A stretch of 50,123 bases of DNA from an uncultured Rhizobiaceae bacterium. Lineage in GTDB: Bacteria > Pseudomonadota > Alphaproteobacteria > Rickettsiales > UBA1997. Position numbers and translations under genes: made by a program. The stretch covers positions 1 through 50,123 of the forward strand of contig CAZAFD010000002.1 in assembly GCA_964484785.1 (NCBI GenBank), given 5' to 3'. Under the pieces are notes generated by a model. The model was not told the DNA's origin. It worked only from the letters and a program-made list of their open reading frames with translations, and did no database searches. Shown here piece after piece: positions 20,601 to 49,756 of the stretch (the stretch's first letter is position 1; every line of letters begins with the position of its first letter).

Positions 20601-23600
20601 TGTTGTAAAGTATTATAATTGTATGTACCAACTTGATCTAAAACTTCTGTAATACCAGATTTGCTAAAGTTCTTTTGATAACTATTGTTACCACATGTCT
20701 TCATTAAACAATCAGATGGGTGAACATGGTGCCCATAATTATTATATAGTGTGCTAGCGTTCGCATCAGCATCAGTTATAATACTAAAGGTTGGAGCACC
20801 ACCTGAACCAAGCGTACACTTATAACCAACTGTGCTTTTAGCATCTGACGTATAGAACAATGTATTATCACATTGAACAGAATCAACATAGTATCTACCA
20901 TATTCTTTCGTACCAATATTCATTGTCTCACTATTACTTGTAATATCAGCAAGACCACTTTCCTTAACATACATAGGCAGAGCCAGTCTCTTAATCTTTA
21001 GTCTATTAAATAATTGAGATAACTCTGTATTATTCTGGAAAACGTTTTCATTGGTACAGGTCTTTGGAATAAAGTAGTTTCCTATATCATAATCAATTGC
21101 ATTAAAGTTCCAGAAGTCAACTTTAGGTTTATTAATACTTCTACTTAAGTTACATACAAACTGCTCTTTAGCCTTTTCAAAAGTAGTAGCTTTAGCTTGT
21201 GAATCAGCTATATTTTGTAATGTCACATTAAACTCGCTGCCGGAGTAATCAGTAATATCTGATTTATTACCAGCACTTAGATAAGAAAAGCCTAAAATTG
21301 AACCTGCATTTTTAACCATTATTCTATTTAGATCAGTATTTAAGTTTAGTGCTAAATTATATGCATTAGACTTATCTTTATTGTATATTGTTATTAAACT
21401 TTTTAGGTCCTCTAGTCTAAAGTAGAGATCACCACAGGTTCTAAATAATACACACCTAGTATCGCCTTGTACAGGACCCCAAGTACCATCTTCGTAACAC
21501 CTTCTCTTTGGAGGGTTTTTAGTTTTTTTATTGATTACATACTGGTATACCTCTGTCTCAGATCCCTTTACAGGATATGTGGCATCACATTCTCCTTCTA
21601 CTTCGTAATACCTTAAACCTTTCTTAGGTCCAGTTGTTTCTAAAGTTAAACTATTTTCATTAACAATAGATCTTGGCCACCTAGCACCACCAAGTCTATA
21701 GTCACCATATAAGAAGCCGCTTGTTTCCTTATTGGCAATAATAACTGATTCCTTATCAGTAGAAGAATAATCATGGAATCTATCATAATCAGGTGTACTT
21801 CTAATAGTACTTATATCTTGGTTACTAATATAATCACCATCGTTAATTTTGCGTTTAAAATTGGTATGATATAAGTCCATCATCTCACAGGCTCTAAAGC
21901 ATGGATTATTTACTCCGCTCCATATACCGGCACTATTACATGTTCTACTTGGTTTTTCAGCATCAGCTGATGCTACTTCATCTATCAACCCAAACATACG
22001 CGGATCGGTTACGCTTGAAGTAAATTGTAACTGACTATGCTGATCTATAAATGTGTCTAAGAAGTAGGTACCTCGACTATAATAACCTAAATCTGCAGCA
22101 CATTCGCCCTGAACTTTCTTCAAATAACTTGTACTTGAATCTATACTTTGATCTTCTTGGGACTTTATATCAAAAATTCTTATTATAGAAGCACTTGTAT
22201 AATCATTTACATCATAAATAACTTTAGAACTATCATTCCTTGGTGCTGAAATAGCTTCCCAGCGAGCTCCTCCTGTATGTCTCCAAGGTGTATACTTGTT
22301 AATTATTTTTGGATCGGAGGTTATATAATACTTGCCATGTCTTGTGGTACCACTAGGTAAAGTCTCATCAATAGATGGTTTGGTTTCTGATACATAAATA
22401 CTATACTGCATCTTATCATCATATGTATCAAAAGAATCCTCAAAGTTTATACGTGGACAATATAAACGTTCACAATATAAATTCTTTTCTACAGCAGGTT
22501 CAAACACTTCACGAACATTATCTTGTAAGAAGCCAGTATCTTTATCAACTATAAAGTTTAGATTTAAGAAACCATTACCATTATTAGCACCCGTTACAGC
22601 ATTCTGCCAAACCGGATGTTCTCTAAAGTAGTGTAGAGCAGTATTAGTTATAGCATTATGATAAATATCTCTCACAACCAACCATTCTCCTCTTGGACCA
22701 CAGTATCTCCTAGGTAGATAAGCATTCAACTGTAAACCAGTAATATTTAAACCATTAGTTAGGAGTTCTTCATTAAATATTCTAACTTGTTCCTTGAGCA
22801 ACTTAACAAATTTATTTTGTTCTACTCTAGTACCAGCCAAGTATTCGTAATTAACATCAACATCAGCAGAATTACTATCTGTAAATATATATGGTATATA
22901 TCTTTCTTTGTAGTAATTTGTACCAGCTGGCGCAAAACCAGTAATACATTGTTTAGCTACAGCTGGTTGCGCTATATCTTTACTTTCTATACTAGACCAT
23001 ACAGCAAAACCATGTGAATTACCTCTTAAATCTACAGATTGTCCATCTATTTCTTCATTATGTGAGAAGGATTTAAAATCAGTAGGAGCAACTGTAGATG
23101 TAAAATTACTTATTTCGGCAGCATCAAAGTTATATATTTCACTTTCATCACCAGAATCTATAAATACATCAGGACAAGCATACCTCTCACAAACCTGAGA
23201 ATTTTCTAATAATTCATATTGATAGACATATTTATTTCCGATCTTCTTCTTCACACATTTAGCACGAGGAGTACCATGATCTGAATTTCTCCAAAAACCA
23301 TTACACGTACCCTCAACAACATCTTGAGCACCTATACACTTACTAATATTGTCTCCACAGTATAAAGAAGATTCAAATTCTGCATGGCCCAAGCTTAATT
23401 GAGTCTTATCACTTCTGCTAGCAGAATTCATCACACCAAATATTTTTTCTTCACTTCTCCATATATTTTGTTCATAAGGATTATTAGTACCTCTAAGACT
23501 ATTTAACTCTTCTTCGGTGGTAAAGTATAACTGTTCATTAGGGTCAATATACTTATGATTATGGCCATAATACTTGACTGCACGACATGTAGGAATTTCT

Positions 23601-26600
23601 GGGATACTTACACATAGACCTAATTCTCTACGTTCCGCATCACGTGATTCAAAATATTTATTAAAGAGGCTAGCATTATCTTTACGAGCATTTCTTATAC
23701 CAGTAGTATCATCATAGCAAGAACAAGAATAATTCATCCTATCGTCAGAAAAGACAGTATTATTTTTATTGAATCCGCCTTTATAGCATAACTGCATCTT
23801 TTTAATATATTCCTCATTCTTAATAACTTCCAAAGTAGGTTTGTTACGAATCTCATTAAAAAATGTTGAACAGTTAACTTCTTTTACAAAAAGCGTTTCA
23901 GCGGTACCAAGACTTGCTACCTTTTTACAGCCTATTTCGTTAATATCATCACAGTATGCATAAACAATGTCATCCACTAAACAATCAATATTAGAACGAC
24001 TTATATCATCGAGTACACACTTACCCTTGGCTCCTTGCTTAGTAACATAAGCTAAAACCTCTGGTATATTATCACCCAACTCACGATTTTTAGCCTTCAT
24101 TGCATCAAAATGCTCTTCTGATATACAAATATCATTGAATGCTCCAAAGGCACCAGGATTCTGTCTAGTTGTATGAATATTTTCTACATAGCCATTGTTA
24201 ATATCCTCATACTTTGCAAATTCTATCAAATCACCATCTAAGTGTTCACAATAAGAGAAAACTGTTTCTGTTATACTGTCATTTTGTCTTTGTAAATTTG
24301 CTATCAAGGATAAATCTTGATTTGCTTTAGACTTTATTTTTTCCCTAGCAATTTTATCTAAATTTTGGTAATATTCCACAACTCGTTTAGAGCAATAACT
24401 TCTATCAAATTTTAAAGAGAAGTGTTGGATGCCGTTTCTACCTGTTTCGTTAATATATATACTATCACTAACCTTATCTCGTAGCTGATATGAAGCATCT
24501 GAAAATTTGCTTAAAATTGAATTATTACTTAAACCTTGTCTATCTACAATTGCCGCTTGGACAACTGGGGTATTAAAGTGGAACTTTTCACTATCAATTC
24601 GCAAGAAAATATTACGGAACGGAGGATAATATCTATCATAACACATTATATTATCTTCTAAAGTAATATAATGTTTACCATTCATTTCTAAAGTATATTG
24701 TTCAAAGGTCTGAGGGACTTCTTGAATTCTGTCTATACAAACAGTAGGAAGCTCTAGATTTCTAATATCCGTATAAGAATCTTTCCTTAAAAGGATATCA
24801 AAAACTTCTAATTTTTTAAATTCTGCTGCTAAATTCTGCCCTTCATATTTATATTCATAAAATGACTTATCGGAATTATTTGAAATAGCAGCTAACTGTG
24901 CCTCATTACTACCCGAATATGCATTTATATATCTACTATCAATAGTTTTGTATTCATAATTGAAATGCATCTTAGGATTAAAGAAATCAAGGATTACTTC
25001 TTGATTGTTATAAGGTATCTTCAATTGATTATTCTTATAACTGTAAAAAGCTGACAGATAGAATAATGGGCTAAATAAATCAATTGAGTTGTTTTGGTTA
25101 GCTAATGTAAAAAAGGCTTGTGGACTTGTTTCGAGTCTAATAGGCACACATTGCGTCTCTTTATAAAATATTTTAGAAACAGGATCATAAATACCTCTAC
25201 AATACTCTATATTTCCTATAGGATTACCATATGAGTCTAATCTACAGTTAATATCACTGCTACTATTTAAATTTCCCACATATGGAACAGTCGCAATCTT
25301 TATATAATTTGCCTTTTCATAATCCTCGTAATCATTTTTAATTCTGTTATCCTGTATATAACAACCACAACTATTGTTCTCAACCGTATAAAAAGTATCA
25401 TCTTTGTGATCTAAAAAAGCAGAAGTAGAGTTATAGGAACCCTCTATTGTTTCACCGTCATAATCAATAAAATATGTCGAATTTTTCTTTAAACAGTCTA
25501 GTTTGTCCTGAGTAATAGATTTATAATCAATCTTTAAACCTCCTTGTGAAACATTTACTATACCAAGTAGCCCACACGAGCTTAATAAATCTCGACTTTT
25601 TGAATTTTGTAAGCTTCCAGATGTTTTAGATCTGACATCGCTTAAAAAATTATCTTTTCTGTTATAAAAGGCATAATCAGTGTTATTATTATCATGTATA
25701 TTAAGTTCTGTTATAATACCTTTTTTATCATTTCCATAATCTCTTACGGTATTAGTATCGTTTCTAACATTTATATTATACTCTGAAAAGTCCTTTTTTT
25801 CACTATAAACACAAGGACTGCTAGGTTTATCATAAGACGGACGACTATAAGTAGTAAGTGGACTACCCAATAGAGCGCTATACGTTTCATAGGCAGCAAG
25901 AGCGGCGGTTGCTACTATTAAAGCAGCCAAGGCACCACCAGCAGTGAAAAAACAAGCAATAGTTGCAGCAGCCACAGCAGCTATCAATACAGCATGTGTT
26001 GTTATTAAGTAAGCTTTAGCTGTACCAACTTCTCCTTCTAGGGCTTTTCTACAAGCAGTTTTAAGAAAGAATTCAGCAGCAAATCTCTTGTCACAATAAG
26101 TATCTAATACTTCTGGAAAAGTATAATTTTCTTTATTTTCAAAGGAACATAAACTACTTTCCTTAGATAAAAATGTACAAACACGTCTTCCAACTCTTTC
26201 AACTTCATACCTAAAACCAAGGTTTGGTGACATTTTATAAGATTCAAAATTAGCGAAGTTAATACCAACTGCCTGGGCATTATCTTTTGTTCCAGGTTGC
26301 AATTTTGTTGGTAGACAATAGTCACCAATATCGCCATGTTCAGCAGCACCACACTGATTACTTTTGCCAAATCTTGTACATACAGATATATCTACAGTGG
26401 CATCTTTAGGTTTTATATTACTATTAGTATCTGTCTTGGCGTAGCTTTGACCTATTTTACTAATATAAGCCGTATTGCTGTCTGGAGTAAAACAGCCTTC
26501 ATCCTTCTCGTTAACGCCACACAAAGGTGTCATTATATCAAATCGACCTCTTCCTACATTACTAATTTTTCCATTATTTAATGCTGGTAGATATTGACTA

Positions 26601-34356: not shown

Positions 34357-34797
34357 ATGAAAGAAATAATAGTTAAAAACTATAAAGACAGAGAAGGTCA
34401 AAATTATTCAGGAACAAACAACTACTTTAAAGTAAAACCAATTATAAAAGATACAGATAAATGTTCGGCAAATTTCGTTGAAGTTGATCCAGGATGTCAC
34501 GCATATTCTTATCACTATCACGAAGAAAACGAGGAAATATTTTATATTATCAGCGGAAAAGCACGTGTTAAGGCTGTTGATAAGGAAATAGATTTAGAGG
34601 AAGGAGATGTAATATGTTTCCCAAGAGGGAAGGCTGGAGCACATGTTATATACAACCTATCTAAAACGGAAAAGTTAATTTATTTGGATGTTGGTAGTGC
34701 AAACAAACCCGACATTATTCACTTCCGAGAAAATGGCGCCGGTATGGTTATTACAAAAGAAAAGGTATATAATTTTAAAGATTCGGAAGATATCTAA
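34357..34797 (+). CDS. Cupin-domain protein
   Basis: 146 aa. Cupin motif 1 is HYHEENEEIFYIISGKARV and motif 2 is GDVICFPRGKAGAHVIYN. Confidence 0.75.
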   Translation: MKEIIVKNYKDREGQNYSGTNNYFKVKPIIKDTDKCSANFVEVDPGCHAYSYHYHEENEEIFYIISGKARVKAVDKEIDLEEGDVICFPRGKAGAHVIYNLSKTEKLIYLDVGSANKPDIIHFRENGAGMVITKEKVYNFKDSEDI

Positions 34798-37973: not shown

Positions 37974-38558
37974 TCAAACCTTGATTTTATAGTATTTACT
38001 GTTTGATTCAATAAAATCAGCTATTTGATGAATTTTAAGTTTGGACTTTATGTTATATATTATTGTATCTACCGCCCTACTTTCATCATAACCACATAGT
38101 TGTTTTAGCAACAAATTCTTATCAACTTGATCATTGTTAAACAAAATCTCTAAAACCTTACATTCTTTTTCTGTTAGGTTTAGTGTTGTAGTATTATCAA
38201 TAACTAAGCATTCTTTGTTTAAATTTAAAACCAAGTTACCTTTAGACAAAACAAACTTATTACAATACTCAATATAAGTGTTTATATGGCTTTTTAAGGT
38301 GTTTAATTTAAAAGGGGGTTTTAAATTTATAACTTCATCAACTTGATAATTGGCAATATTTATTGTTAGAGTACAAATTTTGTTTATTTTATCTATAACC
38401 TTATTCAATTCATTTTTTTGAACTTGATCAAAAATAAATATGTTAAAACCATTAAGTAAAAAGTCTTCTATTTTATCTATTACAACAACTTCTTGGTTGG
38501 TCTCTTGGTTTAGAAAACTAGCTAAAAAGTTATCTTGAGACACGAGAAGACTTTTCAT
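37974..38558 (-). CDS. OmpR/PhoB-type winged-helix regulator with an atypical receiver-like N-terminus
   Basis: 194 aa. The C-terminal LNLTEKECKVLEILFNNDQVDKNLLLKQLCGYDESRAVDTIIYNIKSKL fits the trans_reg_C pattern. The N-terminal half keeps a possible acceptor Asp (IFIFDQ) and KPPF, but the acidic pocket is degenerate (LLVSQDN). No kinase gene is nearby. Confidence 0.55.
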   Translation of the reverse strand: MKSLLVSQDNFLASFLNQETNQEVVVIDKIEDFLLNGFNIFIFDQVQKNELNKVIDKINKICTLTINIANYQVDEVINLKPPFKLNTLKSHINTYIEYCNKFVLSKGNLVLNLNKECLVIDNTTTLNLTEKECKVLEILFNNDQVDKNLLLKQLCGYDESRAVDTIIYNIKSKLKIHQIADFIESNSKYYKIKV

Positions 38559-38565
38559 AAAAACT

Positions 38566-39087
38566 TTATTTATTCTTTTTTGTCAAAGACGACAAAATAA
38601 AAAATAGTTTTCTTTCCTCCATTTTAGGTTCTACATCAAGTTTAGATATATCGCTTAATTGCTCTATAATTTTGTCTGTTATTTCTTTTGATAAGCCCGA
38701 AAATATAATCTCTCTACCTTTAAATTTAAAAGTAAATTTAACTTTATTTCCGTTTTCTAAAAATTTTCTAGCCTGTTTTACTTTTGTATCAAAATCACCC
38801 TGTCCTATGTTTAAAGACATTTTAATTTCTTTTAGTTCCATTGTTTTTTGCTTTTTTTTGGAATCGTTCAATTTTTTCTGATTTTGATATCTTATTTTTC
38901 CATAATCTCCAATCTTACATACAGGTGGAATAGCGTCTGCTGACACTTGAATTAAATCTAATTCGCTTTCGCTAGCCTTTTCTAGGGCCTCAGCTATTGG
39001 CACAATTCCTAATACCTGTCCGTCTTGATCAATCAATCTGACTGTTCTTGCTTTTATTTCTGCGTTTATTTTTAGTTCGTTTATCAA
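38566..39087 (-). CDS. infC: Translation initiation factor IF-3
   Basis: 173 aa, with INELKINAEIKARTVRLIDQDGQVLGIVPIAEALEKASESELDLIQVS... The first in-frame start is TTG (39085-39087). There is no ATG near the expected N-terminus. Confidence 0.92.
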   Translation of the reverse strand: MINELKINAEIKARTVRLIDQDGQVLGIVPIAEALEKASESELDLIQVSADAIPPVCKIGDYGKIRYQNQKKLNDSKKKQKTMELKEIKMSLNIGQGDFDTKVKQARKFLENGNKVKFTFKFKGREIIFSGLSKEITDKIIEQLSDISKLDVEPKMEERKLFFILSSLTKKNK

Positions 39088-39221
39088 TTTGAAAAATTAG
39101 TTATTACTAAATAAATAGTGTTTTCCTTTATTTAAAAGCATTTTCTTTAGATTTCAATAAAAAATTAAAAGTCTTAGCTAATAACCTTATTATATTTTAG
39201 TTATTTTTAGTAAATAGAACC

Positions 39222-39544
39222 TGTTAATATGTTAATAAAAAGTTATTAACAGATTTATTAACAATAATTTAATAAAAGATAAAGCTTTAAATAAAAAGAC
39301 TTTTACAATGTTATTAACAATTTGTTAATAAAAAATAAAAAGTTATTAACATGTTAATAACTAGAAAAAAGGATTGTTAATAAAGCTGCTTAATTTGTTA
39401 ATAAATATTTTTTAACAAAGTTTTTAACAGGGTTATTAACAAGGTTATAAACATGGATATTAACATGTTGTGTTTGTGAAATGCACTATAAAATAAGAAA
39501 CATTGAAATTTATATTTGAGTACGTAAAATCCCGGTGTTAATAA
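39222..39544. repeat. Array of DnaA-box-like 9-mers (TTATTAACA / TGTTAATAA); candidate replication origin or iteron region
   Basis: Perfect TGTTAATAA copies start at 39230, 39323, 39352, 39375, 39396 and 39536. Perfect TTATTAACA copies start at 39243, 39255, 39311, 39343 and 39433. One-mismatch copies start at 39222, 39409, 39421, 39445 and 39457. The array lies in a 629-bp non-coding gap between divergent infC and the 39717 gene. Confidence 0.6.
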
Positions 39545-39716
39545 AAATATGTAAAAATGTTTATTAGATTTTTAGAAGGATTTATTACTGTTTTTCCTTT
39601 TGTTTCTATAAATGAAAAGTTAATTAGTTATTTTCCGCATGAAATATATAAGAACGATTGGAAAATTATAGGTAATACGTTAAAAACAATTTTAAGAAAC
39701 AATAAAGAACATAGAA

Positions 39717-40145
39717 ATGACAAGTAACACGAACGGACAAGAAAAATTAGAGGCATTTTTACCTCCTGTAGAATTATTGCATAAATACGAAGAATTAGGA
39801 ATGGGAGGAGATTTAATAGGGCTGATAAAAAAGGAACAAGCACATAGACATCAGTTACAAAAAAAATATTTAATGTGTTATAGATTTGGCCAAATACTGA
39901 GCTTCTTTTTGATAGCTCTAGTAAGTTGTGGAATATATAATTTATTTGTAAATGAACTTAAAATAGAGGCTTATATATCAATGGTTGCCCTAATTGCCAC
40001 AATGTTTGGTGTTTTGTTTATTATTAGAAAAGATAAAGCAGGTCTAGCCAAAATTAAACAAGTAGCATCTTTGAAGAAAAACAATACTATAGCACAAAGA
40101 TTTTCTAGCGGTGGTAGAAAAAATTTTTATAGAAATAGTAAATAG
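39717..40145 (+). CDS. DUF2335-like small membrane protein
   Basis: 142 aa. The segment LPPVELLHKYEELGMGGDLIGLIKKEQAHRHQLQKK, followed by two hydrophobic helices, matches the DUF2335 pattern as I remember it (PPPE.L..YE...PG...RI....E.EQ.HR). Confidence 0.55.
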   Translation: MTSNTNGQEKLEAFLPPVELLHKYEELGMGGDLIGLIKKEQAHRHQLQKKYLMCYRFGQILSFFLIALVSCGIYNLFVNELKIEAYISMVALIATMFGVLFIIRKDKAGLAKIKQVASLKKNNTIAQRFSSGGRKNFYRNSK

Positions 40146-40148
40146 AAA

Positions 40149-41123
40149 ATGCTAAATAATGAGATTATAGAAGCAGCTAATTTGTCAATAAAAATAGAAA
40201 TGAAGGCTTTGCAAAGCCTTCTGGATAACTCTACTAATCAAAGTTTTTGTGAACTAATCAATTTAATTCTTAACACCAAGGGAAAGGTATGTTTTAGTGC
40301 TGTTGGTAAGCCGGGATATATAGCACATAAATGTGCTGCTACTTTCGCTTCCACGGGAACCCCGTCTTTCTATCTTCATCCAACAGAAGCAAGCCATGGT
40401 GACCTTGGTATGATAGACAAGAAAGATTTGGTGATTCTATTATCAAATTCAGGGTCTTCTAACGAATTAAGAGACATAATTTTATATTGTAAACGTAACG
40501 GTATTACTCTTGTTACAATAACAAGAAATAAAGATTCATTTGTTTCTCAGGCTGGTGATTTATCAATAGTTTTAGAAAATGTTGAACAAACTAATCCTGT
40601 TAATTCACCAACTAGTGACATTATAATGTTTTTGGCTTATCTAGATGCGGTGGCTACTGTTTTAATAAAAGCCAAAGGTTTTAATCAAGATAATTTTAAA
40701 AAATTTCATCCTGGTGGAAAGCTTGGTGCCAACCTTATTAAGGTTGATGAAATAATGCATGTAGACAATCTTCCGTTGGTTTATGAAACCACAGATATGA
40801 GAGAAGCTTTAGACGAGATGATTTTTAAAAATTTAGGCTGTGTTGGTGTTCTTGATACAAATTCAAAAAAATTAATAGGAATTATTACAGATGGTGATTT
40901 AAAACGCCTTCTCAAGAGGGGTATAGGTTTTATGGAAGGTCAAGTAAAAGATGCAATGACCTTGTCACCAAGGGTTGTAAAACTTGGAGCCTTGGCTGTT
41001 GAAGCTGCTTCTATTATGAGTAATAAAGGTAAGTATGTACAGGTTTTGTTTGTGGTAGATGATGAATCACATGTTGTTGGATTCTTACATGTACAAGATC
41101 TTTTTAAAGCAAAAATTATTTAG
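40149..41123 (+). CDS. kdsD: Arabinose-5-phosphate isomerase (SIS + tandem CBS domains; KdsD/KpsF)
   Basis: 324 aa. The SIS motifs are GKVCFSAVGKPGYIAHKCAATFASTGTPSFYLHPTEASHGDLGM and LLSNSGSS. Two C-terminal CBS repeats are present. Confidence 0.88.
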   Translation: MLNNEIIEAANLSIKIEMKALQSLLDNSTNQSFCELINLILNTKGKVCFSAVGKPGYIAHKCAATFASTGTPSFYLHPTEASHGDLGMIDKKDLVILLSNSGSSNELRDIILYCKRNGITLVTITRNKDSFVSQAGDLSIVLENVEQTNPVNSPTSDIIMFLAYLDAVATVLIKAKGFNQDNFKKFHPGGKLGANLIKVDEIMHVDNLPLVYETTDMREALDEMIFKNLGCVGVLDTNSKKLIGIITDGDLKRLLKRGIGFMEGQVKDAMTLSPRVVKLGALAVEAASIMSNKGKYVQVLFVVDDESHVVGFLHVQDLFKAKII

Positions 41124-41128
41124 AATAA

Positions 41129-42040
41129 ATGTTCAATTTTTTTACAAAACAAGATAAAGATAAGGTAAAATCCAGCAAGATTGCTACAGGATTGAATGCT
41201 ATTTTTAATAGCAAGAAACTAGATGAGGAAATGTTAGATAAGTTAGAAGACTTATTATTGTCTAGTGATATTAGTGTTAGTATAGTTAGTGATATTATAA
41301 GGTTCTTAAAAAATAATCGATTTGATAAGGAAGTTAAATTATCAGATATAAAGGAAATTATTTATAATAAATTGGCTAGTATTTTTGCGGATTTGCCTAG
41401 TTCGAACCTGTTTAACTTTAGCGAAAAACCCTATGTGTTGGTATTTTTTGGCGTTAATGGATCGGGCAAAACTACACTTATAGGTAAATTAGCCAATAAA
41501 TTTAAGCTTGATGGTAAAAAAACTTTAGTGGCAGCTTGTGATACCTTTAGAGCTGGGGCTAGCGATCAATTAAGGGTTTGGACAGAAAGAAGTGGGGTTG
41601 ATATAGTTTTGCCAGAACGAGAGTTTCAAGATCCGGCTTCTTTAGCTTTTCAGGCATGTGAAAAAGCCCGTAAGGAAAACTATGATGTACTGTTAATAGA
41701 CACAGCTGGTAGGCTCCAAAGTAATACTAATTTAATGAATCAGCTAACAAAACTAGATAATATTTTAACCAAACTTGATAAAGGTAGGCATAAAAACTTT
41801 TTAGTTTTAGACGCCACTATAGGCCAAAATTCAAATACACAAATTGAGATGTTTAGTGGTGCTGTAAAAATTGATGAAATTATTATTAATAAAATGGATG
41901 GTACAGCCAAGGGTGGGGCCTTGGTTTCGATTACAGATAAGTTTAAAAAACCAATAGCATGTGTTGGTGCTGGTGAAAACATAGAAGATATTTATACTTT
42001 TGATTATAAGAATTTCTTAAAAAGTTTATTAGATTTATAA
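41129..42040 (+). CDS. ftsY: Signal recognition particle receptor FtsY
   Basis: 303 aa with an NG domain: GVNGSGKTT, DTFRAGA, DTAGRLQ and INKMDGTAKGG. Confidence 0.94.
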   Translation: MFNFFTKQDKDKVKSSKIATGLNAIFNSKKLDEEMLDKLEDLLLSSDISVSIVSDIIRFLKNNRFDKEVKLSDIKEIIYNKLASIFADLPSSNLFNFSEKPYVLVFFGVNGSGKTTLIGKLANKFKLDGKKTLVAACDTFRAGASDQLRVWTERSGVDIVLPEREFQDPASLAFQACEKARKENYDVLLIDTAGRLQSNTNLMNQLTKLDNILTKLDKGRHKNFLVLDATIGQNSNTQIEMFSGAVKIDEIIINKMDGTAKGGALVSITDKFKKPIACVGAGENIEDIYTFDYKNFLKSLLDL

Positions 42041-42507
42041 TGTCAGAAACATATAAAATAGTCGCTCAAAACAAGAGGGCTAGATACGAATATTTTATTG
42101 AAGATGAGTATGAGGCTGGCTTGGTACTTTTGGGTTCCGAGATAAAATCTTTACGTGGTGGCAAGGCCAATATACAAGATGCTTTTGTAGAATTTTCTAA
42201 AGATGGACAGTTATATTTAATCAATTCTTACATAGCTCCTTATAAGATGGCTATTTTATTTAATCACGAACCATTAAGAAAAAGAAAATTACTTTTACAT
42301 TCTAGACAAATTAAAAAGATTATAGGTAAAATCAAGACCAAAGGAATAACTGTTGTTCCTTTAGTCTTATATTTTAATAATAAAAATATAGCTAAAATTA
42401 AAATAGCCGTAGCTAAGGGTAAAAAACTATACGACAAGAGACAAACTCTTAAAGAGAGAGATCAAAAAAGGAACGAGCAAAGGTTATTAAAAGATAGTAA
42501 TTATTAA
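42040..42507 (+). CDS. smpB: SsrA-binding protein SmpB
   Basis: 155 aa, with NKRARYEYFIEDEYEAGLVLLGSEIKSLR... and a basic C-terminal tail. The start overlaps the ftsY stop (TAATG). Confidence 0.94.
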   Translation: MSETYKIVAQNKRARYEYFIEDEYEAGLVLLGSEIKSLRGGKANIQDAFVEFSKDGQLYLINSYIAPYKMAILFNHEPLRKRKLLLHSRQIKKIIGKIKTKGITVVPLVLYFNNKNIAKIKIAVAKGKKLYDKRQTLKERDQKRNEQRLLKDSNY

Positions 42508-42516
42508 AAAAGTTTT

Positions 42517-43338
42517 ATGGCAGATTCTTTTGAGGAATTAATAGCAATAGAGGAAGGCAAGGGGTTTTCTAAAGAGGAGTTTTTTTTATATGTTAATTTA
42601 TTTCTTTTTCTGAAGTTTGCTGAGCATCTTGATACCTTAAAGGGAGAAAAAATTAAAAGGATAAAATATTACTTCTCCAATGCTTTTGATATTTTATACA
42701 ACAGTTCATTTAAGACAGATTTTTTAGAGACTTTAATAGACTTTTCTAATTTTAAGAACAATATCTTGATAGAAGCAATGTTTAATTCTCTAAACATTAG
42801 TCCTTCTTATTTAGATGATGTTGATTCTAGAAAGAGAGTGGTTTTTATTATAATGATTGCAGTTTTATTTGCTTTAAATGGATATCGCGAAATTGTAAGA
42901 TTATTACGTAAACCACTTAGTTTTGCACCCAACCTGGAAAGCAAGATTAAGAGATTGGCCGAATCTGATTGTTCTGCTTTTTTACAAGAACTTAATGCTG
43001 GTCATTTTAATCGCATCATTCAAGATAAACAGGGTAATTATATTAGTGTTTGTGAAAAGATGGTTAGGTCTGCTTTAGAAAAGTCTCAATATCATAACCA
43101 TATTAAGCTCAGACAATTTATTCGATACGGCAATGATATAGATAATAATTATAAAAACTTAAAGAACTTGGATTTTATAATGGATTTTAGTCATTTAAGA
43201 AGAGTATATAGAGCACATATGAAGTCTGAACATCAGTTTCTTTATGAAAAAGCATTTTTCAGAGATCTTCCTAAATTTTTAGCTAATATAAGTCAGTACA
43301 ATAAAAAGGATACTGCTCCAGCTATAAGTGAGAATTAA
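42517..43338 (+). CDS. Hypothetical protein (no recognisable family)
   Basis: 273-aa ORF, co-directional and tightly spaced (9 nt) after smpB. It has one hydrophobic segment (VVFIIMIAVLFALNGY). Its 3' end overlaps the convergent ruvC by 17 nt. Confidence 0.55.
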   Translation: MADSFEELIAIEEGKGFSKEEFFLYVNLFLFLKFAEHLDTLKGEKIKRIKYYFSNAFDILYNSSFKTDFLETLIDFSNFKNNILIEAMFNSLNISPSYLDDVDSRKRVVFIIMIAVLFALNGYREIVRLLRKPLSFAPNLESKIKRLAESDCSAFLQELNAGHFNRIIQDKQGNYISVCEKMVRSALEKSQYHNHIKLRQFIRYGNDIDNNYKNLKNLDFIMDFSHLRRVYRAHMKSEHQFLYEKAFFRDLPKFLANISQYNKKDTAPAISEN

Positions 43339-43813
43339 AACAAGTATTATTAATGTGACATATAGCTATAGCTAAAGCATCTGCTTCATCTTCAGTTTTG
43401 GTTGACGATAAGGGCAGTAAACATTTAATCATTGTTACTATTTGGTCTTTGTGAGCCTTGCCGATACCTGTTACTGCCTTTTTGACAGCGTTTGGTAGAT
43501 ATTCAAAAACATCCAAGTTATTCATTCCAGCAGCCAAAATAGCGGCTCCACGTGCATGACCCAATTTTAAAGAGGATACAGCGTTGTTATTCATAAAGGT
43601 TTGTTCTATTGCAAAAGACCTTGGTTTATAGGTCTTTATTATTGTGTCTATATTAGTATAGATGTTTTTTAATCTTAGTTCTATAGGTAGTTTTTGTTCA
43701 GTAAAAATAGTGCCACTATTTATATAAATTAGATTATTATTATCTAAACCAACTATCCCCCAACCGGTTTTGAGTAAACCAGGATCTATTCCTATAACTA
43801 TTTTATTCAACAT
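43322..43813 (-). CDS. ruvC: Holliday junction resolvase RuvC
   Basis: 163 aa, with IGIDPGLLKTGWGIV, ...FAIEQTF... and ...DEADALAIAICH. Confidence 0.93.
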   Translation of the reverse strand: MLNKIVIGIDPGLLKTGWGIVGLDNNNLIYINSGTIFTEQKLPIELRLKNIYTNIDTIIKTYKPRSFAIEQTFMNNNAVSSLKLGHARGAAILAAGMNNLDVFEYLPNAVKKAVTGIGKAHKDQIVTMIKCLLPLSSTKTEDEADALAIAICHINNTCFNSHL

Positions 43814-46319
43814 CTTTAATAGATTTTAGTAACATTTCATCTAGAGAAGTTTCGTCATCAATTTCTACTTCCTCTGTAGCATTTATTATTGATTCTTTGT
43901 CGTGATATAAATTATCGATGGTTTTATCACTATTAATTTTAAAGGCTTCAAATATTATATCATTTTTGTCTGAACTTAAGTTTGGCTTTTGTCCAGTCTT
44001 ATTATCTATTTTTATAAATTCTATGTTTTCAGGAACTCGAAATGGTATGTCGGCCTTATCTTTTAAAATATTTTTCATAGCACTAACGAAAATTGGTAGA
44101 GCGGTTCTAGAACCTGTTTCTTCATCTCCTAGACTGATACTGTTATCATAACCAACATAAACTCCCATCACAAAATCTGGGGAAAATCCTATAAACCATG
44201 TGTCCTTATAATTATTGCTGGTGCCTGTTTTTCCACCAATTGTTTTACCTATAGCTTTAGCTCTCCAACCAGTACCGTTTTTAACAGCATCTTCCAAGAT
44301 ATAAATTATTTGGTAAGCGTTGGCTGGATCTATGATGCTTTTTCTCTTATCTTTTAGTTCTGGGATCAAGACTTTATCAATGTTCTCTTCTGTGACTATA
44401 CAGAAAGGGCACTCCCTATTGTCCATTCTATAAATTATTTTGCCGTATTGATCTTGAATTTTTTCTATAAGATTTAGATCGATTTCTTTACCTCCATTGA
44501 CCAATATAGCGTAGGCTCTGGTTAAATCTATTAGTTTTGTTTCTAAAGAACCTAGAACCATAGAATATAAAGCTTGCGGCTGTTTGTTTATATTTAATCG
44601 CCTTATCATTTCTGTAACTTTATTTAGACCAAGTTGGTCGGCTAATCTAACCGTTGCAACGTTGTGTGATTTTTTTAGTGCTGTCCTCAAGGTTATGGGG
44701 CCATAATACATATCAGCATAATAGTTGTGAGGAGTATATGGTGGTAAACCATATCCTTGATCTAGAGTAATTTCTTCATCTACTACTATGCTTGCTGGAC
44801 TATATCCGTTTTCAAAGGCAGAAAGATATACAAAAGGCTTGATTGTAGAACCGATTTGTCTTGTGGCTTGAGTTACTCTGTTGAAGTTTGTTTCAGAGTC
44901 TATATAGCCACCTACCATACCCAAGATTCTACCAGTATGAGGATCTAACATAACAGCGCCGCCGTTTGTTACTGGTACTTGTCTTAATAAATATCCAGAG
45001 TTTTGGCTGGCTTTAACTAGAATTACATCTCCCAATCTTATATTCAGATCCTGTATTTTAGTAGCTACTTTTTTTTGTGCCTTGTCTTCCCGAGATATAG
45101 CCCAATTATTGGATTTAAAATCCAGATAGCTTGTTATATAATTTTTACCATTGATATTTACTGTAATATCATACAAATGTTGTGTTTTTGTATCTAGTAG
45201 ACCAATTTTAGCACGATTATCTTTATTATTTATGTCTAATATTACGGCTTTTAGCCAGCCGTTTCTAATATAGCTATTTGTGTGGAAGGTTGCTAATTTT
45301 TCTGGCCAGGTATTTTCAAAATCTGTATCATCATATATATTACCTAGACTGCCACGATAACCATATCTTCTTTCATAAGCTTCTATCCCGTTTTTTAAAG
45401 CTTCTCGCATGGCTTCTTGTATATCTGGATCTAGTGTTGTTGTTATTACTAAACCTCCAGTTAAGAGAGTGTTTTCATCGGTAAGCTCGATTATTTTTTT
45501 TCTGGCGTCTTCAGTAAAAGAACCAGCTATAAAGTATTCAGAAGATTCTTTTTCTGAAACGTGTATCTCGGTTTTTATGGCTTTATCCATTTGGTCCTTT
45601 GTGATAAGGCCTTTTTCGTATAATCTTCCTATAACCCAATTTCTACGTTTTAATGCTCCGCTATAATTTACCTTTGGGTTAAGGTGTCCTGGTGCCTTGG
45701 GTAGGGCTGCCAGTAGAGCTACTTCTTCTATTTCAAGATCGTCTAACGACTTATTAAAGTAGTTTAATGCTCCGGCTGCTACACCATAGGCTCTAGCTCC
45801 TAAAAATATTTGATTTAGATATAGTTCTAGAACCTTATTTTTTGGTATAGCTCTAGTGATCTTAAGCGATAAAATTGCTTCTTTAATTTTTCTTTCAAGT
45901 GTCTTATCGTTAGTTAATAAAAAATTTTTTGCTACTTGTTGAGTAATTGTGGATCCTCCACGTATTTTACGTGAATCAAAATTAGATCTCGCATTATCTA
46001 TGGCTGCAGATATGATTGATTTTATACTGATTCCAAAGTGATAATAAAAATCTGCGTCCTCAGCTACTATAAAAGCATCTTTTACTAATTTTGGAATATT
46101 ATCAATCGGCACAAACAGTCTTTTTTCTTTGGCGTATTCTTTTAGTAAACGGCCATTATTGGTATAAAGTCTACTTGTTAAAATTGGATTGTAATTCTTT
46201 AGTTGTTCGATACTTGGTAATTTAGCGTTATAATAATTAAAAATGCATATTGAAACTAGTATGCCTGAAGCTGTACCAATTAAGAATAATGATGTTAAAA
46301 GACGTAAAAATTTTTTCAT
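43803..46319 (-). CDS. mrcA: Bifunctional class A penicillin-binding protein (PBP1A)
   Basis: 838 aa. The glycosyltransferase motifs are EDADFYYHFGI, GGSTITQQ and RKIKEA. The transpeptidase motifs are STIKP (SxxK), SHN and KTGTS. Confidence 0.93.
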   Translation of the reverse strand: MKKFLRLLTSLFLIGTASGILVSICIFNYYNAKLPSIEQLKNYNPILTSRLYTNNGRLLKEYAKEKRLFVPIDNIPKLVKDAFIVAEDADFYYHFGISIKSIISAAIDNARSNFDSRKIRGGSTITQQVAKNFLLTNDKTLERKIKEAILSLKITRAIPKNKVLELYLNQIFLGARAYGVAAGALNYFNKSLDDLEIEEVALLAALPKAPGHLNPKVNYSGALKRRNWVIGRLYEKGLITKDQMDKAIKTEIHVSEKESSEYFIAGSFTEDARKKIIELTDENTLLTGGLVITTTLDPDIQEAMREALKNGIEAYERRYGYRGSLGNIYDDTDFENTWPEKLATFHTNSYIRNGWLKAVILDINNKDNRAKIGLLDTKTQHLYDITVNINGKNYITSYLDFKSNNWAISREDKAQKKVATKIQDLNIRLGDVILVKASQNSGYLLRQVPVTNGGAVMLDPHTGRILGMVGGYIDSETNFNRVTQATRQIGSTIKPFVYLSAFENGYSPASIVVDEEITLDQGYGLPPYTPHNYYADMYYGPITLRTALKKSHNVATVRLADQLGLNKVTEMIRRLNINKQPQALYSMVLGSLETKLIDLTRAYAILVNGGKEIDLNLIEKIQDQYGKIIYRMDNRECPFCIVTEENIDKVLIPELKDKRKSIIDPANAYQIIYILEDAVKNGTGWRAKAIGKTIGGKTGTSNNYKDTWFIGFSPDFVMGVYVGYDNSISLGDEETGSRTALPIFVSAMKNILKDKADIPFRVPENIEFIKIDNKTGQKPNLSSDKNDIIFEAFKINSDKTIDNLYHDKESIINATEEVEIDDETSLDEMLLKSIKDVE

Positions 46320-46362
46320 ATTAAAATTTGGATCAGTATTTCCTCTCTAATAATAACAATAA

Positions 46363-47007
46363 TTATAAATATTTTGTTAATATTGTTAAGATTTTCTTCT
46401 GTACTTCCTCTATATTTAGTTCAGTTACATTCAAGATCTTACATCGATTACTTTCTTCTTGAGATAAACGCTTAAATCCTTCTCTTACTCTTCTATGGTA
46501 ATCTAATTCCATATCCTCAAATTTATTTTTAACACCCCGTTTATTGGCGCGTTTTAGTCCTTCTTCTATATCTAGATCTAAAATTAATGTTATATCTGGT
46601 TTAAAGTCATCTAATACTATTTTTCTTATAGTGTTAATCTTATCAATATCAAATTTATAGCCGTATCCTTGGTATGCCAAACTTGAATCAAAATACCTAT
46701 CAGAAACAACAGTAATATTTTGTGAAAGTAATGGTTTTATTTTTTTAACTGTATGTACTCGTCTTGAAGCATACATCAAAAGGAGTTCTGTTATACCATC
46801 CCATTTGCCCACTCCACCATTAAATAGTAGAGATCTTATTTCTTCTGCCTCGTCGCAGCCTCCCGGTTCTCTTGTCCAAACGGCCTGTATACCTTTATTG
46901 TTTAAATAATCGACCAATAGTTTTGATTGAGTGCTTTTGCCAACTCCCTCTGGCCCCTCAAATGTGATAAACTTACCACGAAGTTTTTCTAAATTTTCCA
47001 TTTTCAA
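46363..47007 (-). CDS. tmk: Thymidylate kinase
   Basis: 214 aa, with P-loop FITFEGPEGVGKST and DRYFDSSLAYQG. The track start is TTG at 47007. ATG at 47001 (MENLEKL...) is more likely. Confidence 0.92.
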   Translation of the reverse strand: MKMENLEKLRGKFITFEGPEGVGKSTQSKLLVDYLNNKGIQAVWTREPGGCDEAEEIRSLLFNGGVGKWDGITELLLMYASRRVHTVKKIKPLLSQNITVVSDRYFDSSLAYQGYGYKFDIDKINTIRKIVLDDFKPDITLILDLDIEEGLKRANKRGVKNKFEDMELDYHRRVREGFKRLSQEESNRCKILNVTELNIEEVQKKILTILTKYL

Positions 47008-47019
47008 ATTATGTTTTTG

Positions 47020-47865
47020 CTAATTTATTTTGTCTAATAATAGATTTAGTTCTTTGGTATTATTATATTTTATTACTAACTGCCCTCCATCGTTTTCGGA
47101 ATTGTTAGTAATTTTAAAGGAAAAGTTTTTCAACTTGTCCTTTAATACATCATGTATTTCTTGAGATATAGAATGTTTATTCTTTTTTATAACTTTTTTA
47201 GTTTTTACTAATTTTTCTACTTGGCGCACAGATAGATTATTTTCTAAAATATATTGAGCTAATTCTTCGGCGCGTGGGTTGCCTATTAATGGTCTTATAT
47301 GACCATAATCCAATAAACCCTTATTCAAATAATCTAAAACTTTATCAGGTAGATTCAATACACGTAGTATATTTGCTATATAGCTTCGGCTCTTACCAAT
47401 TTTTTCTGCCAACTGTGTCTGGGTAAAATTATAAAGATCTATTAAATTTTTGTAGGCTATGGCCTCTTCTATTGTATTTAAGTTAGATCTTTGGATATTC
47501 TCTATTATACTAAGATTAAAACTATTTTCATTATCTAGATTTTTTACTATTGCCTGAATTTTTTTGAATCCAAGAATTTTGCAGGCTCTATATCTTCTCT
47601 CTCCTGCAATGATCTCGTATTTGCCACTTTGATTTGTACTTGGTCTGACTATAATAGGTTGTAATAAGCCAAAGTTCTTTATAGATTGGGCTAAATCATC
47701 TAATTCTTCTTTGTTAAATTCTTTTCTTGGTTGTTTGGGGTTTGGATAGATTAAATCTATATCTAGTTCATTATCGAATTCTAGATTTTTTGTAGTATTT
47801 ACAAATATTTTTCTTTCTCCTAGTAGGCTGGCTAATCCCTTGCCTAATCTGCTTGTATTATTCAT
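47020..47865 (-). CDS. parB: Chromosome partitioning protein ParB
   Basis: 281 aa, with LGKGLASLLG, LLQPIIVR, the GERRYRA box and an HTH (TQTQLAEKIGKSRSYIAN). It overlaps the parA stop (ATGA). Confidence 0.94.
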   Translation of the reverse strand: MNNTSRLGKGLASLLGERKIFVNTTKNLEFDNELDIDLIYPNPKQPRKEFNKEELDDLAQSIKNFGLLQPIIVRPSTNQSGKYEIIAGERRYRACKILGFKKIQAIVKNLDNENSFNLSIIENIQRSNLNTIEEAIAYKNLIDLYNFTQTQLAEKIGKSRSYIANILRVLNLPDKVLDYLNKGLLDYGHIRPLIGNPRAEELAQYILENNLSVRQVEKLVKTKKVIKKNKHSISQEIHDVLKDKLKNFSFKITNNSENDGGQLVIKYNNTKELNLLLDKIN

Positions 47866-48632
47866 TTTTTGCGTGATTTTTTGATAATTTCTTCCACTAG
47901 AGACATATAAGCTATTGAGCCAGAACAGTTCGAATCGTATAATATTGCTGGTATTCCATGCGATGCAGCTTCAGACAGTCTAATGTTTCTAGGAATTACT
48001 GTTTTATAAACCAAATCACCTAGACAATCTCTTACATCCTTTTCTATATTTTCTGTTAACTTGTTTCGCCTATCATACATAGTAAGAAGTATTCCATCAA
48101 TTGTTAAGTGTTTATTAAAATTTTCTTTGATTCTTTCTATGCTATCTAGTAAATGAGCCAGCCCTTCTAGGGCAAAAAATTCACATTGCAGCGGAACTAT
48201 AATTGAATCAGAAGCGCATAAGGCATTAATGGTTAACATACTCAATGATGGAGGACAATCAATTAAAATATAATCAAAATTTTCTTTTATATCTTTCAAT
48301 TTATTTTTTAAAATATATTCCCTTTTATCAAAGCTACACAATTCAATTTCCGCGGCGGCTAGATCTAAATTTGATAATAATATGTTTAAATTAGGTATAC
48401 GAGTTTTTGTAATTGCTGTATTTATATCTAAGTTATCTACAACTACTGTGTAGCTATTGTTTAATTCTTTGTTCATACTTTCAAATCCTAGGCCTGAGCT
48501 GCAATTACCTTGTGGATCAAAGTCTATTAAAAGTATTTTATAATTTATAGCAGCTAAAGTGCCGGCTAAGTTTATCGCCGTCGTTGTTTTACCAACGCCG
48601 CCCTTTTGGTTAACGATAGATATTACTTGCAT
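47862..48632 (-). CDS. parA: Chromosome partitioning ATPase ParA/Soj
   Basis: 256 aa, with the deviant Walker A NQKGGVGKTTTAINL and DCPPS. Confidence 0.94.
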   Translation of the reverse strand: MQVISIVNQKGGVGKTTTAINLAGTLAAINYKILLIDFDPQGNCSSGLGFESMNKELNNSYTVVVDNLDINTAITKTRIPNLNILLSNLDLAAAEIELCSFDKREYILKNKLKDIKENFDYILIDCPPSLSMLTINALCASDSIIVPLQCEFFALEGLAHLLDSIERIKENFNKHLTIDGILLTMYDRRNKLTENIEKDVRDCLGDLVYKTVIPRNIRLSEAASHGIPAILYDSNCSGSIAYMSLVEEIIKKSRKK

Positions 48633-48720
48633 TACAGTAAACAGCTTTTTTAAATTCGAAATAATTTCAGGTTAAAAGGTAAAGCAGAAATTTTATATTT
48701 GCAAGTTAATGTAACACTAG

Positions 48721-48736
48721 TGTTAAACGTGAAACA
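48721..48736. promoter_or_regulatory. parS-like centromere site
   Basis: TGTTAAACGTGAAACA matches the parS consensus TGTTTCACGTGAAACA at 14 of 16 positions, and the right half-site is perfect. It lies 89 nt upstream of the parA start and overlaps a separate perfect 14-bp palindrome, TAACACTAGTGTTA (48712-48725). Confidence 0.55.
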
Positions 48737-49756
48737 TTATAGAGTTTTTGCTCTTTGTAAAGTGCCTTTTTCACTGTGCAAGTACTTATCAACATAACTA
48801 TTTTTGTTTTTTTGGTCAAGACTATTTGTATTTTTTGCAATACTTGTTGTTTGTTGTTTTTTGATTCCCTGCTTATATGTTCTTAAAGTATCTACTGCGG
48901 TTTGTGCTATTGATAAACCTTGTTTGCTAGCATATACAACGAGTGATGTTTTTATGGCTGTGGTTAATGCTTTGGTGAGTACATTACAAAATAATCTGGT
49001 ATCATTAAAGCTTGGTGTATAACTAGTTAATCTGCTGTTTCTAGTCTGAAGACTAGAAGTATATTGATTAGTTTTTTGTTGTCCTGGTTGTTGATGATTA
49101 GAAGGTGAAGATAAACTTGGTACAGAGGACTCTTCTATTATAGGTTTCGAGCGAAGAAGAGTTAAGTCCTTAATTGTTTGAATAGGTCTAAGAACAGCAT
49201 TTTTAAGCCTGTCGGTTAACCGTGGCTTTGTAATATCAATAAGACCTTGCTCCTTGGCGGGTTTGGCACGTAATGTTTGTTGGGTTTTTAATTTATGTAA
49301 ACTATTTAAAAATCGCTCAAAATTTCTATTAACCATTCTAGCCATATTAAGCACGCGGCCTAATCCAGATGTCTCCTGCAAAGATTGACCTCTATGAATT
49401 GGATTAATGTCGGCTCCCAAGGCAAATTGATGGATCCAATAAGATAAAGCACCTAATAATCCAGCTTTTTTTAATTTTGTTTTTTTATATTTTCTTTTAT
49501 TTAATAAAAGCCTTAAATATTCAATAAAAGACTCCATATCAAAAAAACCTAAACTTATTAGATATTGTATTAAGTCTTCAAAGTTTTGTAATTCGTTAAA
49601 AACTGGTTGTAAAACTTCGTTTTGCTCAACTTTATTTGTTTGAATTGATTGCTGCAAACCACTAAAGATTTGGTCTATAAGGTTTTGATATTCATCTACC
49701 TTGTCTTGTGGTAGTATAAAGTTATTGCCAAATGGATTCTCAAATTGAACATTCAT
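48737..49756 (-). CDS. Hypothetical protein (no recognisable family; Ser/Thr/Gln-rich middle)
   Basis: 339-aa ORF upstream of parA, in the slot usually held by rsmG/mnmG. I recognise no motifs. A low-complexity stretch is present (SSVPSLSSPSNHQQPGQQKTNQYTSSLQTRNSRLTSYTPS). Confidence 0.55.
   Translation of the reverse strand: MNVQFENPFGNNFILPQDKVDEYQNLIDQIFSGLQQSIQTNKVEQNEVLQPVFNELQNFEDLIQYLISLGFFDMESFIEYLRLLLNKRKYKKTKLKKAGLLGALSYWIHQFALGADINPIHRGQSLQETSGLGRVLNMARMVNRNFERFLNSLHKLKTQQTLRAKPAKEQGLIDITKPRLTDRLKNAVLRPIQTIKDLTLLRSKPIIEESSVPSLSSPSNHQQPGQQKTNQYTSSLQTRNSRLTSYTPSFNDTRLFCNVLTKALTTAIKTSLVVYASKQGLSIAQTAVDTLRTYKQGIKKQQTTSIAKNTNSLDQKNKNSYVDKYLHSEKGTLQRAKTL

Follow-up and report, generated by a model that had tools for sequence, protein, structure and literature searches.

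The window in this study is the whole stretch of DNA that was analyzed, 50,123 bases long. Its housekeeping genes are gyrB, nusA, infB, rpoZ, efp, pgk, truB, rbfA, infC, ftsY, smpB, ruvC, a PBP1A-type gene, tmk, and parAB, and the DNA is therefore chromosomal. A dense array of short repeats sits in the gap between infC on its left (38566-39087, minus strand) and a plus-strand block on its right, which contains a small ORF of 56 aa, a membrane ORF of 142 aa, a kpsF-like SIS/CBS gene, ftsY, and smpB. The gene orientations proposed in a first-pass annotation of this DNA held up on reanalysis: minus from 15419 to 39087 (with an exception at 34357-34797), plus from 39717 to 43338, and minus again from 43322 to 49756. 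The 50-kb window contains no dnaA and no hemE, and the array is flanked by infC and the small ORF/kpsF-like gene in place of the conserved origin neighborhood (dnaA/dnaN, or hemE in alphaproteobacteria). A dnaA or hemE neighborhood is frequent in origins, not obligatory.

The reported gap reached 39716. Its non-coding part ends at 39556 because a conserved ORF of 56 aa follows, at 39557-39727 on the plus strand. Its product is 75% identical in amino acids to L002:2458-2649, an ORF in the closest relative found, and it was also called as a gene on Logan contig L001. The rightward block begins with this gene, which falls within the coordinates given for the finding but outside the putative origin proper. 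The partition locus is 8-9 kb from the array, which is an origin-proximal position for parABS. parA and parB are located at 47020-48632, and a parS-like site, TGTTAAACGTGAAACA, with two mismatches to the consensus, is located upstream of parA at 48721-48736, in agreement with the earlier placement of parAB and a parS-like site about 9 kb away.

The GC content of the organism is about 32%. By FtsY, its nearest relatives share 55-63% identity, and submitters gave some of them the name 'Rickettsiales bacterium'. An identical 2.5-kb contig is present in a prairie-vole fecal run (PMC6952658). The FtsY relatives and the vole fecal contig together point to an uncultured gut alphaproteobacterium.

The repeat is the 9-mer TTATTAACA. 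As the first-pass annotation had noted, it equals the DnaA-box consensus TTATNCACA except at position 6, where C is replaced by A. In the 50,123-base window, 13 exact copies were counted in the two orientations (TTATTAACA/TGTTAATAA), compared to dinucleotide-preserving shuffles, which averaged 3.14 and reached at most 9. Eleven of the 13 fall in 39230-39544, a span of about 315 bp for which the shuffle-based rate predicts about 0.02 copies, the same figure that had been estimated before. Two isolated copies had been reported outside the array; the one at 30886 is where it was said to be, and the one assigned to 31885 is actually at 31893. Five one-mismatch boxes are in register with the perfect ones: 39222 and 39457 (ATATTAACA), 39409 and 39421 (TTTTTAACA), and 39445 (TTATAAACA). 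A sixth one-mismatch match, at 39309, was rejected as spurious since it overlaps the perfect box at 39311. The recount therefore gives 16 boxes in 39222-39544, 11 perfect and five with one mismatch, which reproduces the original tally of 11 perfect and at least five one-mismatch copies in about 320 bp. A box cluster of oriC type is usually defined by at least 3-4 boxes with a mean spacing below 100 bp and no more than one mismatch to TTWTNCACA (cited in PMC7561715 and PMC1914354). The array has 16 boxes, and each perfect copy is a single mismatch, at position 6, from the consensus.

The boxes are organized in modules, which were compared in a MAFFT alignment of seven genomes (A1). The boxes form invariant columns in this alignment and the spacers vary. 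The left module (39222-39263) starts with two abutting minus-strand boxes, ATATTAACA at 39222 and TTATTAACA at 39230, followed by plus-strand boxes at 39243 and 39255 with spacings of 13 and 12 bp; its box columns are invariant. A box-free spacer of 47 bp (39264-39310, 85% AT) separates it from the central boxes. The sequence of this spacer differs among genomes, while the box-to-box distance across it is conserved (53-57 bp, start to start). The central boxes (39311-39404) comprise a convergent pair at 39311 (plus) and 39323 (minus), a palindromic pair at 39343 (plus) and 39352 (minus), and single minus-strand boxes at 39375 and 39396. The convergent pair, TTATTAACAnnnTGTTAATAA, is invariant in the alignment and also gives a TTAA-N7-TTAA match. 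The palindromic pair is the 18-bp palindrome previously described, found at the same coordinates, 39343-39360. The right module (39409-39465, plus strand) holds five boxes in strict 12-bp phase, in the order TTTTTAACA, TTTTTAACA, TTATTAACA, TTATAAACA, ATATTAACA.

The last box (39536-39544, minus strand) is isolated and lies immediately downstream of the -10 hexamer of a promoter-like site on the plus strand, TTGAAA-16-TAAAAT at 39503-39530, so that site and box together span 39503-39544. Both promoter-like hexamers are conserved in L002. Scanning the gap for GATC, GANTC, the canonical TTATNCACA, and the IHF consensus yielded nothing informative, and the gap matches no RNA family in Rfam.

Whole-sequence GC skew in the window tracks gene orientation. 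Since this skew is not decisive alone, third codon positions were used, read on the top strand with genes split by orientation; skew at these positions separates the effect of replication from that of the coding strand. Left of 39400, the GC3 skew was -0.044 in plus genes and -0.085 in minus genes, and right of 39400 it was +0.206 and +0.203, respectively. The third-position T/A skew behaved in the same way, with -0.044 (plus) and -0.130 (minus) on the left and +0.105 (plus) and +0.119 (minus) on the right. The top strand thus changes from C/A-rich to G/T-rich at the array in genes of either strand, with the change point at 39.0-39.5 kb of the 50-kb window. A change-point scan on a 500-bp grid, using a logistic model that included terms for gene strand and for side, had its optimum at 39500 (delta logL of 22.3), compared to 16.4 at 43000, near the strand switch at 43.3 kb. 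The cumulative G-C curve reached its minimum at 39016. At the level of single genes, the mean skew was -0.115 on the left (n = 30) and +0.171 on the right (n = 11; Mann-Whitney p = 1.6e-5), and the difference persisted when only plus genes (p = 0.0013) or only minus genes (p = 0.0014) were used. The polarity, with a G/T-rich top strand to the right, fits an origin and not a terminus. A skew analysis had been named as a check in the first-pass annotation; run on this 50-kb contig, it shows the third-position skew flipping at the array with origin polarity. The flip is local to 50 kb, and an inversion boundary could in principle be its source. When the loci of relatives were pooled, the GC3 skew was -0.083 to the left and +0.124 to the right of the array (Fisher p = 1.5e-11), and the right value exceeded the left in 9 of 10 loci.

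Related arrays were sought among 185,579 species-representative genomes by scanning for three perfect boxes on the same strand with gaps of no more than 30 nt, and at least 119 loci were found. Among the matches listed, dense arrays with 8-11 perfect boxes per 500 bp were mostly in bins labelled Rickettsiales (L012, L019, L029, L037, L042, L052, L068, and L078); others came from a Pelagibacterales bin (L072), from a bin that carries the label 'Rickettsia typhi' (L056), and from a few further ones. The order, orientation, and spacing of the boxes in the window can be written as '- 13 + 12 + 56 + 12 - ... - 13 + 12 + 12 + 12 + 12 +'. This layout recurs in at least six MAGs labelled Rickettsiales, in the same sense in L012 and as the reverse complement in L052, L019, L078, L037, and L042. 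The same six also have a phased run of four to five boxes like the right module. The genes next to the array differ within this gut group and include a Band 7 protein, a family 4 glycosyltransferase, an amino-acid permease, and conserved hypothetical proteins. In the closest FtsY relatives (L002-L006), the array is absent from the syntenic kpsF-ftsY-smpB site, and the similarity of L002 to the window starts at about 39500, just to the right of the array. The position of the array is therefore not conserved. One further candidate, L086, was rejected as an array of origin type; it is a 14-bp tandem repeat that contains the 9-mer incidentally.

In four other alphaproteobacterial MAGs among the matches listed (L068, L029, L072, and L056), a dense array of the same 9-mer is located directly upstream of hemE. 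In L068, hemE is followed by a CNNM/CBS/CorC gene. In Caulobacter, Rickettsia, Wolbachia, Ehrlichia, and Anaplasma, the origin is bounded by hemE paired with COG1806 or COG1253, a CBS-domain gene (PMC1914354). The arrays next to hemE match this classical alphaproteobacterial origin site and support the reading of the array as an origin.

The same scan connects the 9-mer to dnaA. In at least 12 loci from other lineages, including Bacilli, Clostridia, Mollicutes, Ignavibacteria, and Patescibacteria, triples of the 9-mer occur 20-225 bp upstream of the dnaA start codon, and in at least two further loci they occur just downstream of dnaA. The identity of dnaA was confirmed with Pfam in 10 of these loci. 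By chance, dnaA is estimated to be present in well under 1% of 8-kb blocks. Near dnaA, TTATTAACA is intermixed with canonical TTATCCACA and TTATTCACA boxes. The variants of the 9-mer are also informative. Inside the alphaproteobacterial arrays, one-mismatch variants are mainly changed at position 5 (15 cases), position 3 (10, mostly A to T), and position 1 (8). In one-mismatch copies outside the arrays, the changes are chiefly at positions 8 and 7. Positions 3 and 5 are the degenerate positions of TT(A/T)TNCACA, which supports the reading of the 9-mer as a DnaA box.

Both the stringent and the relaxed E. coli box consensus retain C at position 6. Of the 150 box-like 9-mers (TTWTNNACA) in the alphaproteobacterial arrays, 143 carry A at position 6, and there are hardly any canonical CACA boxes. 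In Mycoplasma hominis, M. mobile, and M. arthritidis, TTATTAACA had already been annotated as a putative DnaA box (PMC2751442), and for T5-like phages it appears among the non-consensus boxes (bioRxiv 10.1101/866236). From these sequence patterns, we infer that DnaA would bind the A6 boxes of the window. Since A is so prevalent at position 6 and CACA boxes are so scarce, a shift in the preference of DnaA at this position is possible. We consider it possible but rather unlikely that the pair of initiator and box has been recoded throughout the clade, such that the DnaA of this lineage may prefer A at position 6 beyond tolerating AT drift, or that the 9-mers double as sites for a second cell-cycle regulator. 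If recoding or dual use were true, the conserved and regular layout of 16 boxes would offer a natural setting in which to study the co-evolution of DnaA specificity and origin grammar.

The skew flip, the conserved layout, the arrays adjacent to hemE, and the occurrence of the 9-mer upstream of dnaA are four independent lines of support for the chromosomal origin proposed in the first-pass annotation. We conclude that the array is very probably oriC, the DnaA-dependent origin at which replication of the main chromosome starts in an uncultured gut alphaproteobacterium of about 32% GC. In the proposed mechanism, DnaA-ATP would dock on the boxes via domain IV, and adjacent DnaA molecules would oligomerize along the phased modules, in which boxes on the same strand are about one helical turn apart (11-13 bp). 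A filament seeded at the abutting pair 39222/39230 would spread to the left onto the AT-rich DNA at 39088-39221 and open it, and bidirectional replication would follow. The isolated box at 39536, on the conserved promoter-like site, probably couples transcription of the rightward operon to DnaA.

The candidate unwinding region is the left flank (39088-39221), which extends from the infC start to the first box pair. It had been singled out as a very AT-rich stretch. It is indeed AT-rich (82.8%), but it is not distinct from the array, which is itself 83.2% AT, and its duplex stability does not place it with the window's least stable 40-mers. No segment is distinctive by AT content or duplex stability. 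The flank ends in AAATAGAACC at 39212-39221, which contains a TAG-bearing trinucleotide stretch beside the tandem boxes: AAA TAG AAC, then C, then the boxes at 39222 and 39230. A basal unwinding system is described by the rule of one or more boxes, a spacer of up to 16 bp, and three or more NAN trios that follow on the correct strand. The stretch fits this rule, but so do 56-70% of random positions in the spacer. The DnaA-trio scan was therefore discarded as evidence, since most random positions in AT-rich DNA satisfy the pattern.

The sole match of the gap in a plasmid collection by BLAST was the dnaA-dnaN intergenic region of C. difficile, a chromosome fragment filed as a plasmid. This region reads TAGTAGTAATAGTAGTAG-gtgt-TGTTGATAA-TGTTAATAA, and its boxes TTATCAACA and TTATTAACA, both of A6 type, abut DnaA-trios. 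In C. difficile, DnaA-dependent unwinding has been mapped to the dnaA-dnaN half of the origin, oriC2 (PMC7561715). In the relatives of the window, the counterpart of the flank and box pair is TATTATTAG(A/T)CC-TGTTAATn-TGTTAATAA. Since the abutting pair 39222/39230 is oriented and arranged like the trio-proximal boxes of C. difficile and like the pair in the relatives, opening is predicted to the left of 39222. The candidate unwinding element in the left flank is plausible. The internal 47-bp spacer, with its conserved length, is an alternative opening site.

Both E. coli and B. subtilis are known to have DnaA-box clusters away from their origins. The array could be such a cluster, a titration or regulatory site like E. 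coli datA or the Bacillus subtilis clusters that controls the availability of DnaA or the divergent promoters, with replication starting elsewhere. datA is a box cluster away from the origin with an essential IHF site, and like the array it is a dense, intergenic group of DnaA boxes. The window is without dnaA and hemE, one box overlaps a promoter-like site, and no distinct unwinding element is visible, all of which would suit this explanation. We regard it as very unlikely because a composition switch of origin polarity coincides with the array in plus and minus genes, and likewise in the pooled relatives; because dense arrays of the same 9-mer occupy the hemE origin position in four MAGs; and because the IHF consensus that datA requires was not found in the gap. 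Another possible explanation is that a different lineage-wide protein binds the 9-mers at or near the origin, either a response regulator of CtrA type or an initiator or nucleoid protein not yet known. CtrA is a candidate because the 9-mer contains TTAAC, so that copies spaced 11 bp apart yield TTAA-N7-TTAAC. Several neighboring boxes in L068, L029, L072, and L090 have this CtrA-type spacing, the invariant convergent pair provides TTAA-N7-TTAA (39314) with a second match at 39258, and an overlap of CtrA sites with DnaA boxes is known from Caulobacter origins (PMC1914354). The boxes of the window and the gut group, however, are phased at 12-13 bp, which yields TTAA-N8-TTAA. A CtrA-controlled origin of the Cori type has several TTAA-N7-TTAA(C) sites across it, whereas the gap has no full TTAA-N7-TTAAC and just the two loose TTAA-N7-TTAA matches, which are formed by the boxes themselves. 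Moreover, all nine positions are conserved, beyond TTAAC, the tolerated variants include both degenerate positions of the DnaA-box consensus, and phyla that lack CtrA have clusters of this 9-mer upstream of dnaA. A different binder is thus improbable.

The first-pass annotation had itself offered an alternative, an operator or iteron array for another DNA-binding protein. In its operator form, the 9-mers would serve a 194-aa winged-helix protein of OmpR type encoded at 37974-38558, and in its iteron form a plasmid-like Rep protein; either would control local genes or an integrated element. This ORF, 0.5 kb left of the array, has a weak Trans_reg_C match (E = 9.9e-6), and proteins of the OmpR family bind phased direct repeats. 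Its matches are, however, only weak and generic to the OmpR family, with none to CtrA, and a search of 5.8 billion proteins detected no homologue. It is therefore unlikely to be a conserved binder and offers no synteny anchor, while the array is conserved amid unrelated neighbors. An iteron origin has direct repeats of about 17-22 bp beside a rep gene on a mobile replicon. The array instead has 9-mers in both orientations, there is no rep gene nearby, and the flanks are housekeeping genes (infC, rbfA, truB, kpsF-like, ftsY, and smpB). The gap matched no phage records, and its one match in the plasmid database is the chromosomal dnaA-dnaN region. With no true counterpart in the plasmid and phage BLAST searches, an origin of the array from a mobile element was rejected. 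Control of local genes or of an integrated element through these repeats is extremely unlikely.

As oriC, the array belongs to an ordinary type of element, and its box variant and origin logic have already been described. It is modestly interesting for its nearly exclusive use of the A6 box, its strict multi-module layout across the clade, and the loss of the hemE neighborhood. It places the origin in a gut alphaproteobacterial lineage known only from metagenome bins, which aids genome closure, growth-rate estimates from coverage (peak-to-trough ratio), and the orientation of contigs. The hemE neighborhood was lost while the internal box layout was kept, so a prediction from neighboring genes would miss this origin and a scan for A6 boxes finds it. 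The use of TTATTAACA beside dnaA in several phyla is something that origin-finding tools could exploit.

The array can be compared to several known systems. oriC of Escherichia coli has 9-mer boxes in both orientations, a same-strand spacing of 11 bp, and a combination of strong and weak sites. The window shares with it a cluster of boxes that point both ways, a same-strand spacing of roughly one helical turn that suits DnaA oligomers, an AT-rich flank, and a neighboring promoter that carries a box. It differs in its spacing (12-13 bp versus 11 bp), in having nearly all boxes of one consensus and no mixture of strong and weak sites, and in a gap without GATC, GANTC, or the IHF consensus. Origins of the same broad lineage are those of Caulobacter (Cori) and the Rickettsiales (Brassinga et al., via Ioannidis et al. 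2007, PMC1914354). Both they and the array occupy intergenic, AT-rich regions, 300-600 bp long, in which DnaA boxes coincide with a skew switch. They adjoin hemE, whereas the array sits between infC and the small ORF/kpsF-like operon, and 3-5 boxes are reported for them (PMC1914354), compared to about 16 near-identical boxes, all A6, in the window. The gap also differs from them in that no full CtrA site and no IHF consensus were found in it.

oriC2 of Clostridioides difficile and the BUS of Bacillus subtilis (PMC7561715, PMC8287927) share with the window two abutting boxes in the TGTTAATAA orientation, a G/C-containing spacer of 3-5 nt (4 nt in C. difficile), and a trinucleotide stretch with TAG nearest the boxes. 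These origins are bipartite, flank dnaA, and have clear (TAG)n trios; in contrast, the array is continuous, dnaA is not nearby, and the trio-like stretch is short and statistically no different from the background. The Mollicutes M. hominis, M. mobile, and M. arthritidis (PMC2751442) have the identical 9-mer, which was likewise read there as AT-rich drift of the DnaA box. They carry one or two copies upstream of dnaA, whereas the window has 11 perfect copies in a conserved multi-module layout away from dnaA.

Similarity between the window and the locus of its closest relative by FtsY (L002) starts at approximately position 39500, directly to the right of the array of DnaA-box-like 9-mers (L002 2330-2460 compared with window 39440-39560). 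The place of the array in this relative is taken by a CYTH-domain gene. Therefore, the origin or its neighbours have been rearranged here. A Logan contig from a prairie-vole faecal run (SRR9335148; L001), which is identical to the window, stops at window position 39436, within the box array. This end is probably an assembly break at the array repeats.

A 56-aa ORF on the plus strand (39557-39727), shorter than the usual ORF-length cut-off, lies to the right of the array. An ORF in L002 (2458-2649) is 75% identical to it, and a gene call was also made for it on the Logan contig. It shares 11 nt with the beginning of the 142-aa membrane ORF and was without a match to any Pfam or NCBIfam family. 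In three gut MAGs that share the array layout of the window, the left end of the array is adjoined by a hypothetical protein of 250-270 aa (L012 4747-5559, L052 6840-7598 and L019 5386-6150). This protein shows 43-50% identity between the genomes and has no Pfam match.

Two further MAGs carry clusters of the 9-mer. In a Pseudomonadota MAG, 10 copies of the 9-mer, all of them perfect, form a strict 14-bp tandem repeat (L086 5901-6035) flanked by two ORFs of approximately 535 aa each. This repeat is different in kind from the origin-type arrays. In a MAG labelled Hyphomicrobiales (L108), nadA is flanked by two box clusters (1665-1983 and 3034-3363), in which TTATTAACA is mixed with the canonical TTATTCACA and also with TTATCAACA; these may represent a bipartite arrangement.

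The plasmid-database match (NZ_CP149720.1 11011-17158) belongs to a C. difficile record of 163 kb that was deposited as a plasmid. Its gene order, gyrB-recF-yaaA-dnaN-dnaA-rpmH-rnpA, is that of a chromosomal origin region, and the record looks like a chromosome fragment under a plasmid label. Alphaproteobacterial-type arrays were present in bins labelled "Rickettsia typhi" (L056) and "Rikenella microfusus" (L027), and for both the taxonomic label or the binning looks doubtful. In the former, the order is hemE, array and an NMO-domain gene, not COG1806.

Elsewhere in the window, a 194-aa ORF on the minus strand (37974-38558) adjoins infC and has a weak match to an OmpR-type winged-helix C-terminal domain. 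It lacks a detectable receiver domain, and a comparison with 5.8 billion proteins gave no homologue; it is an orphan regulator-like gene. A giant minus-strand ORF of 3914 aa (17690-29434) has an N-terminal hydrophobic segment and seems to have a high content of Cys, Asn and Ser; its product is probably secreted or located at the cell surface. A parS-like site, TGTTAAACGTGAAACA (48721-48736), which differs from the consensus at two positions, is located in the gap that precedes parA. Meso-diaminopimelate dehydrogenase is encoded on the minus strand at 216-1112 (TIGR01921, E = 5.9e-93); alphaproteobacteria do not commonly use this route to make lysine and peptidoglycan precursors.
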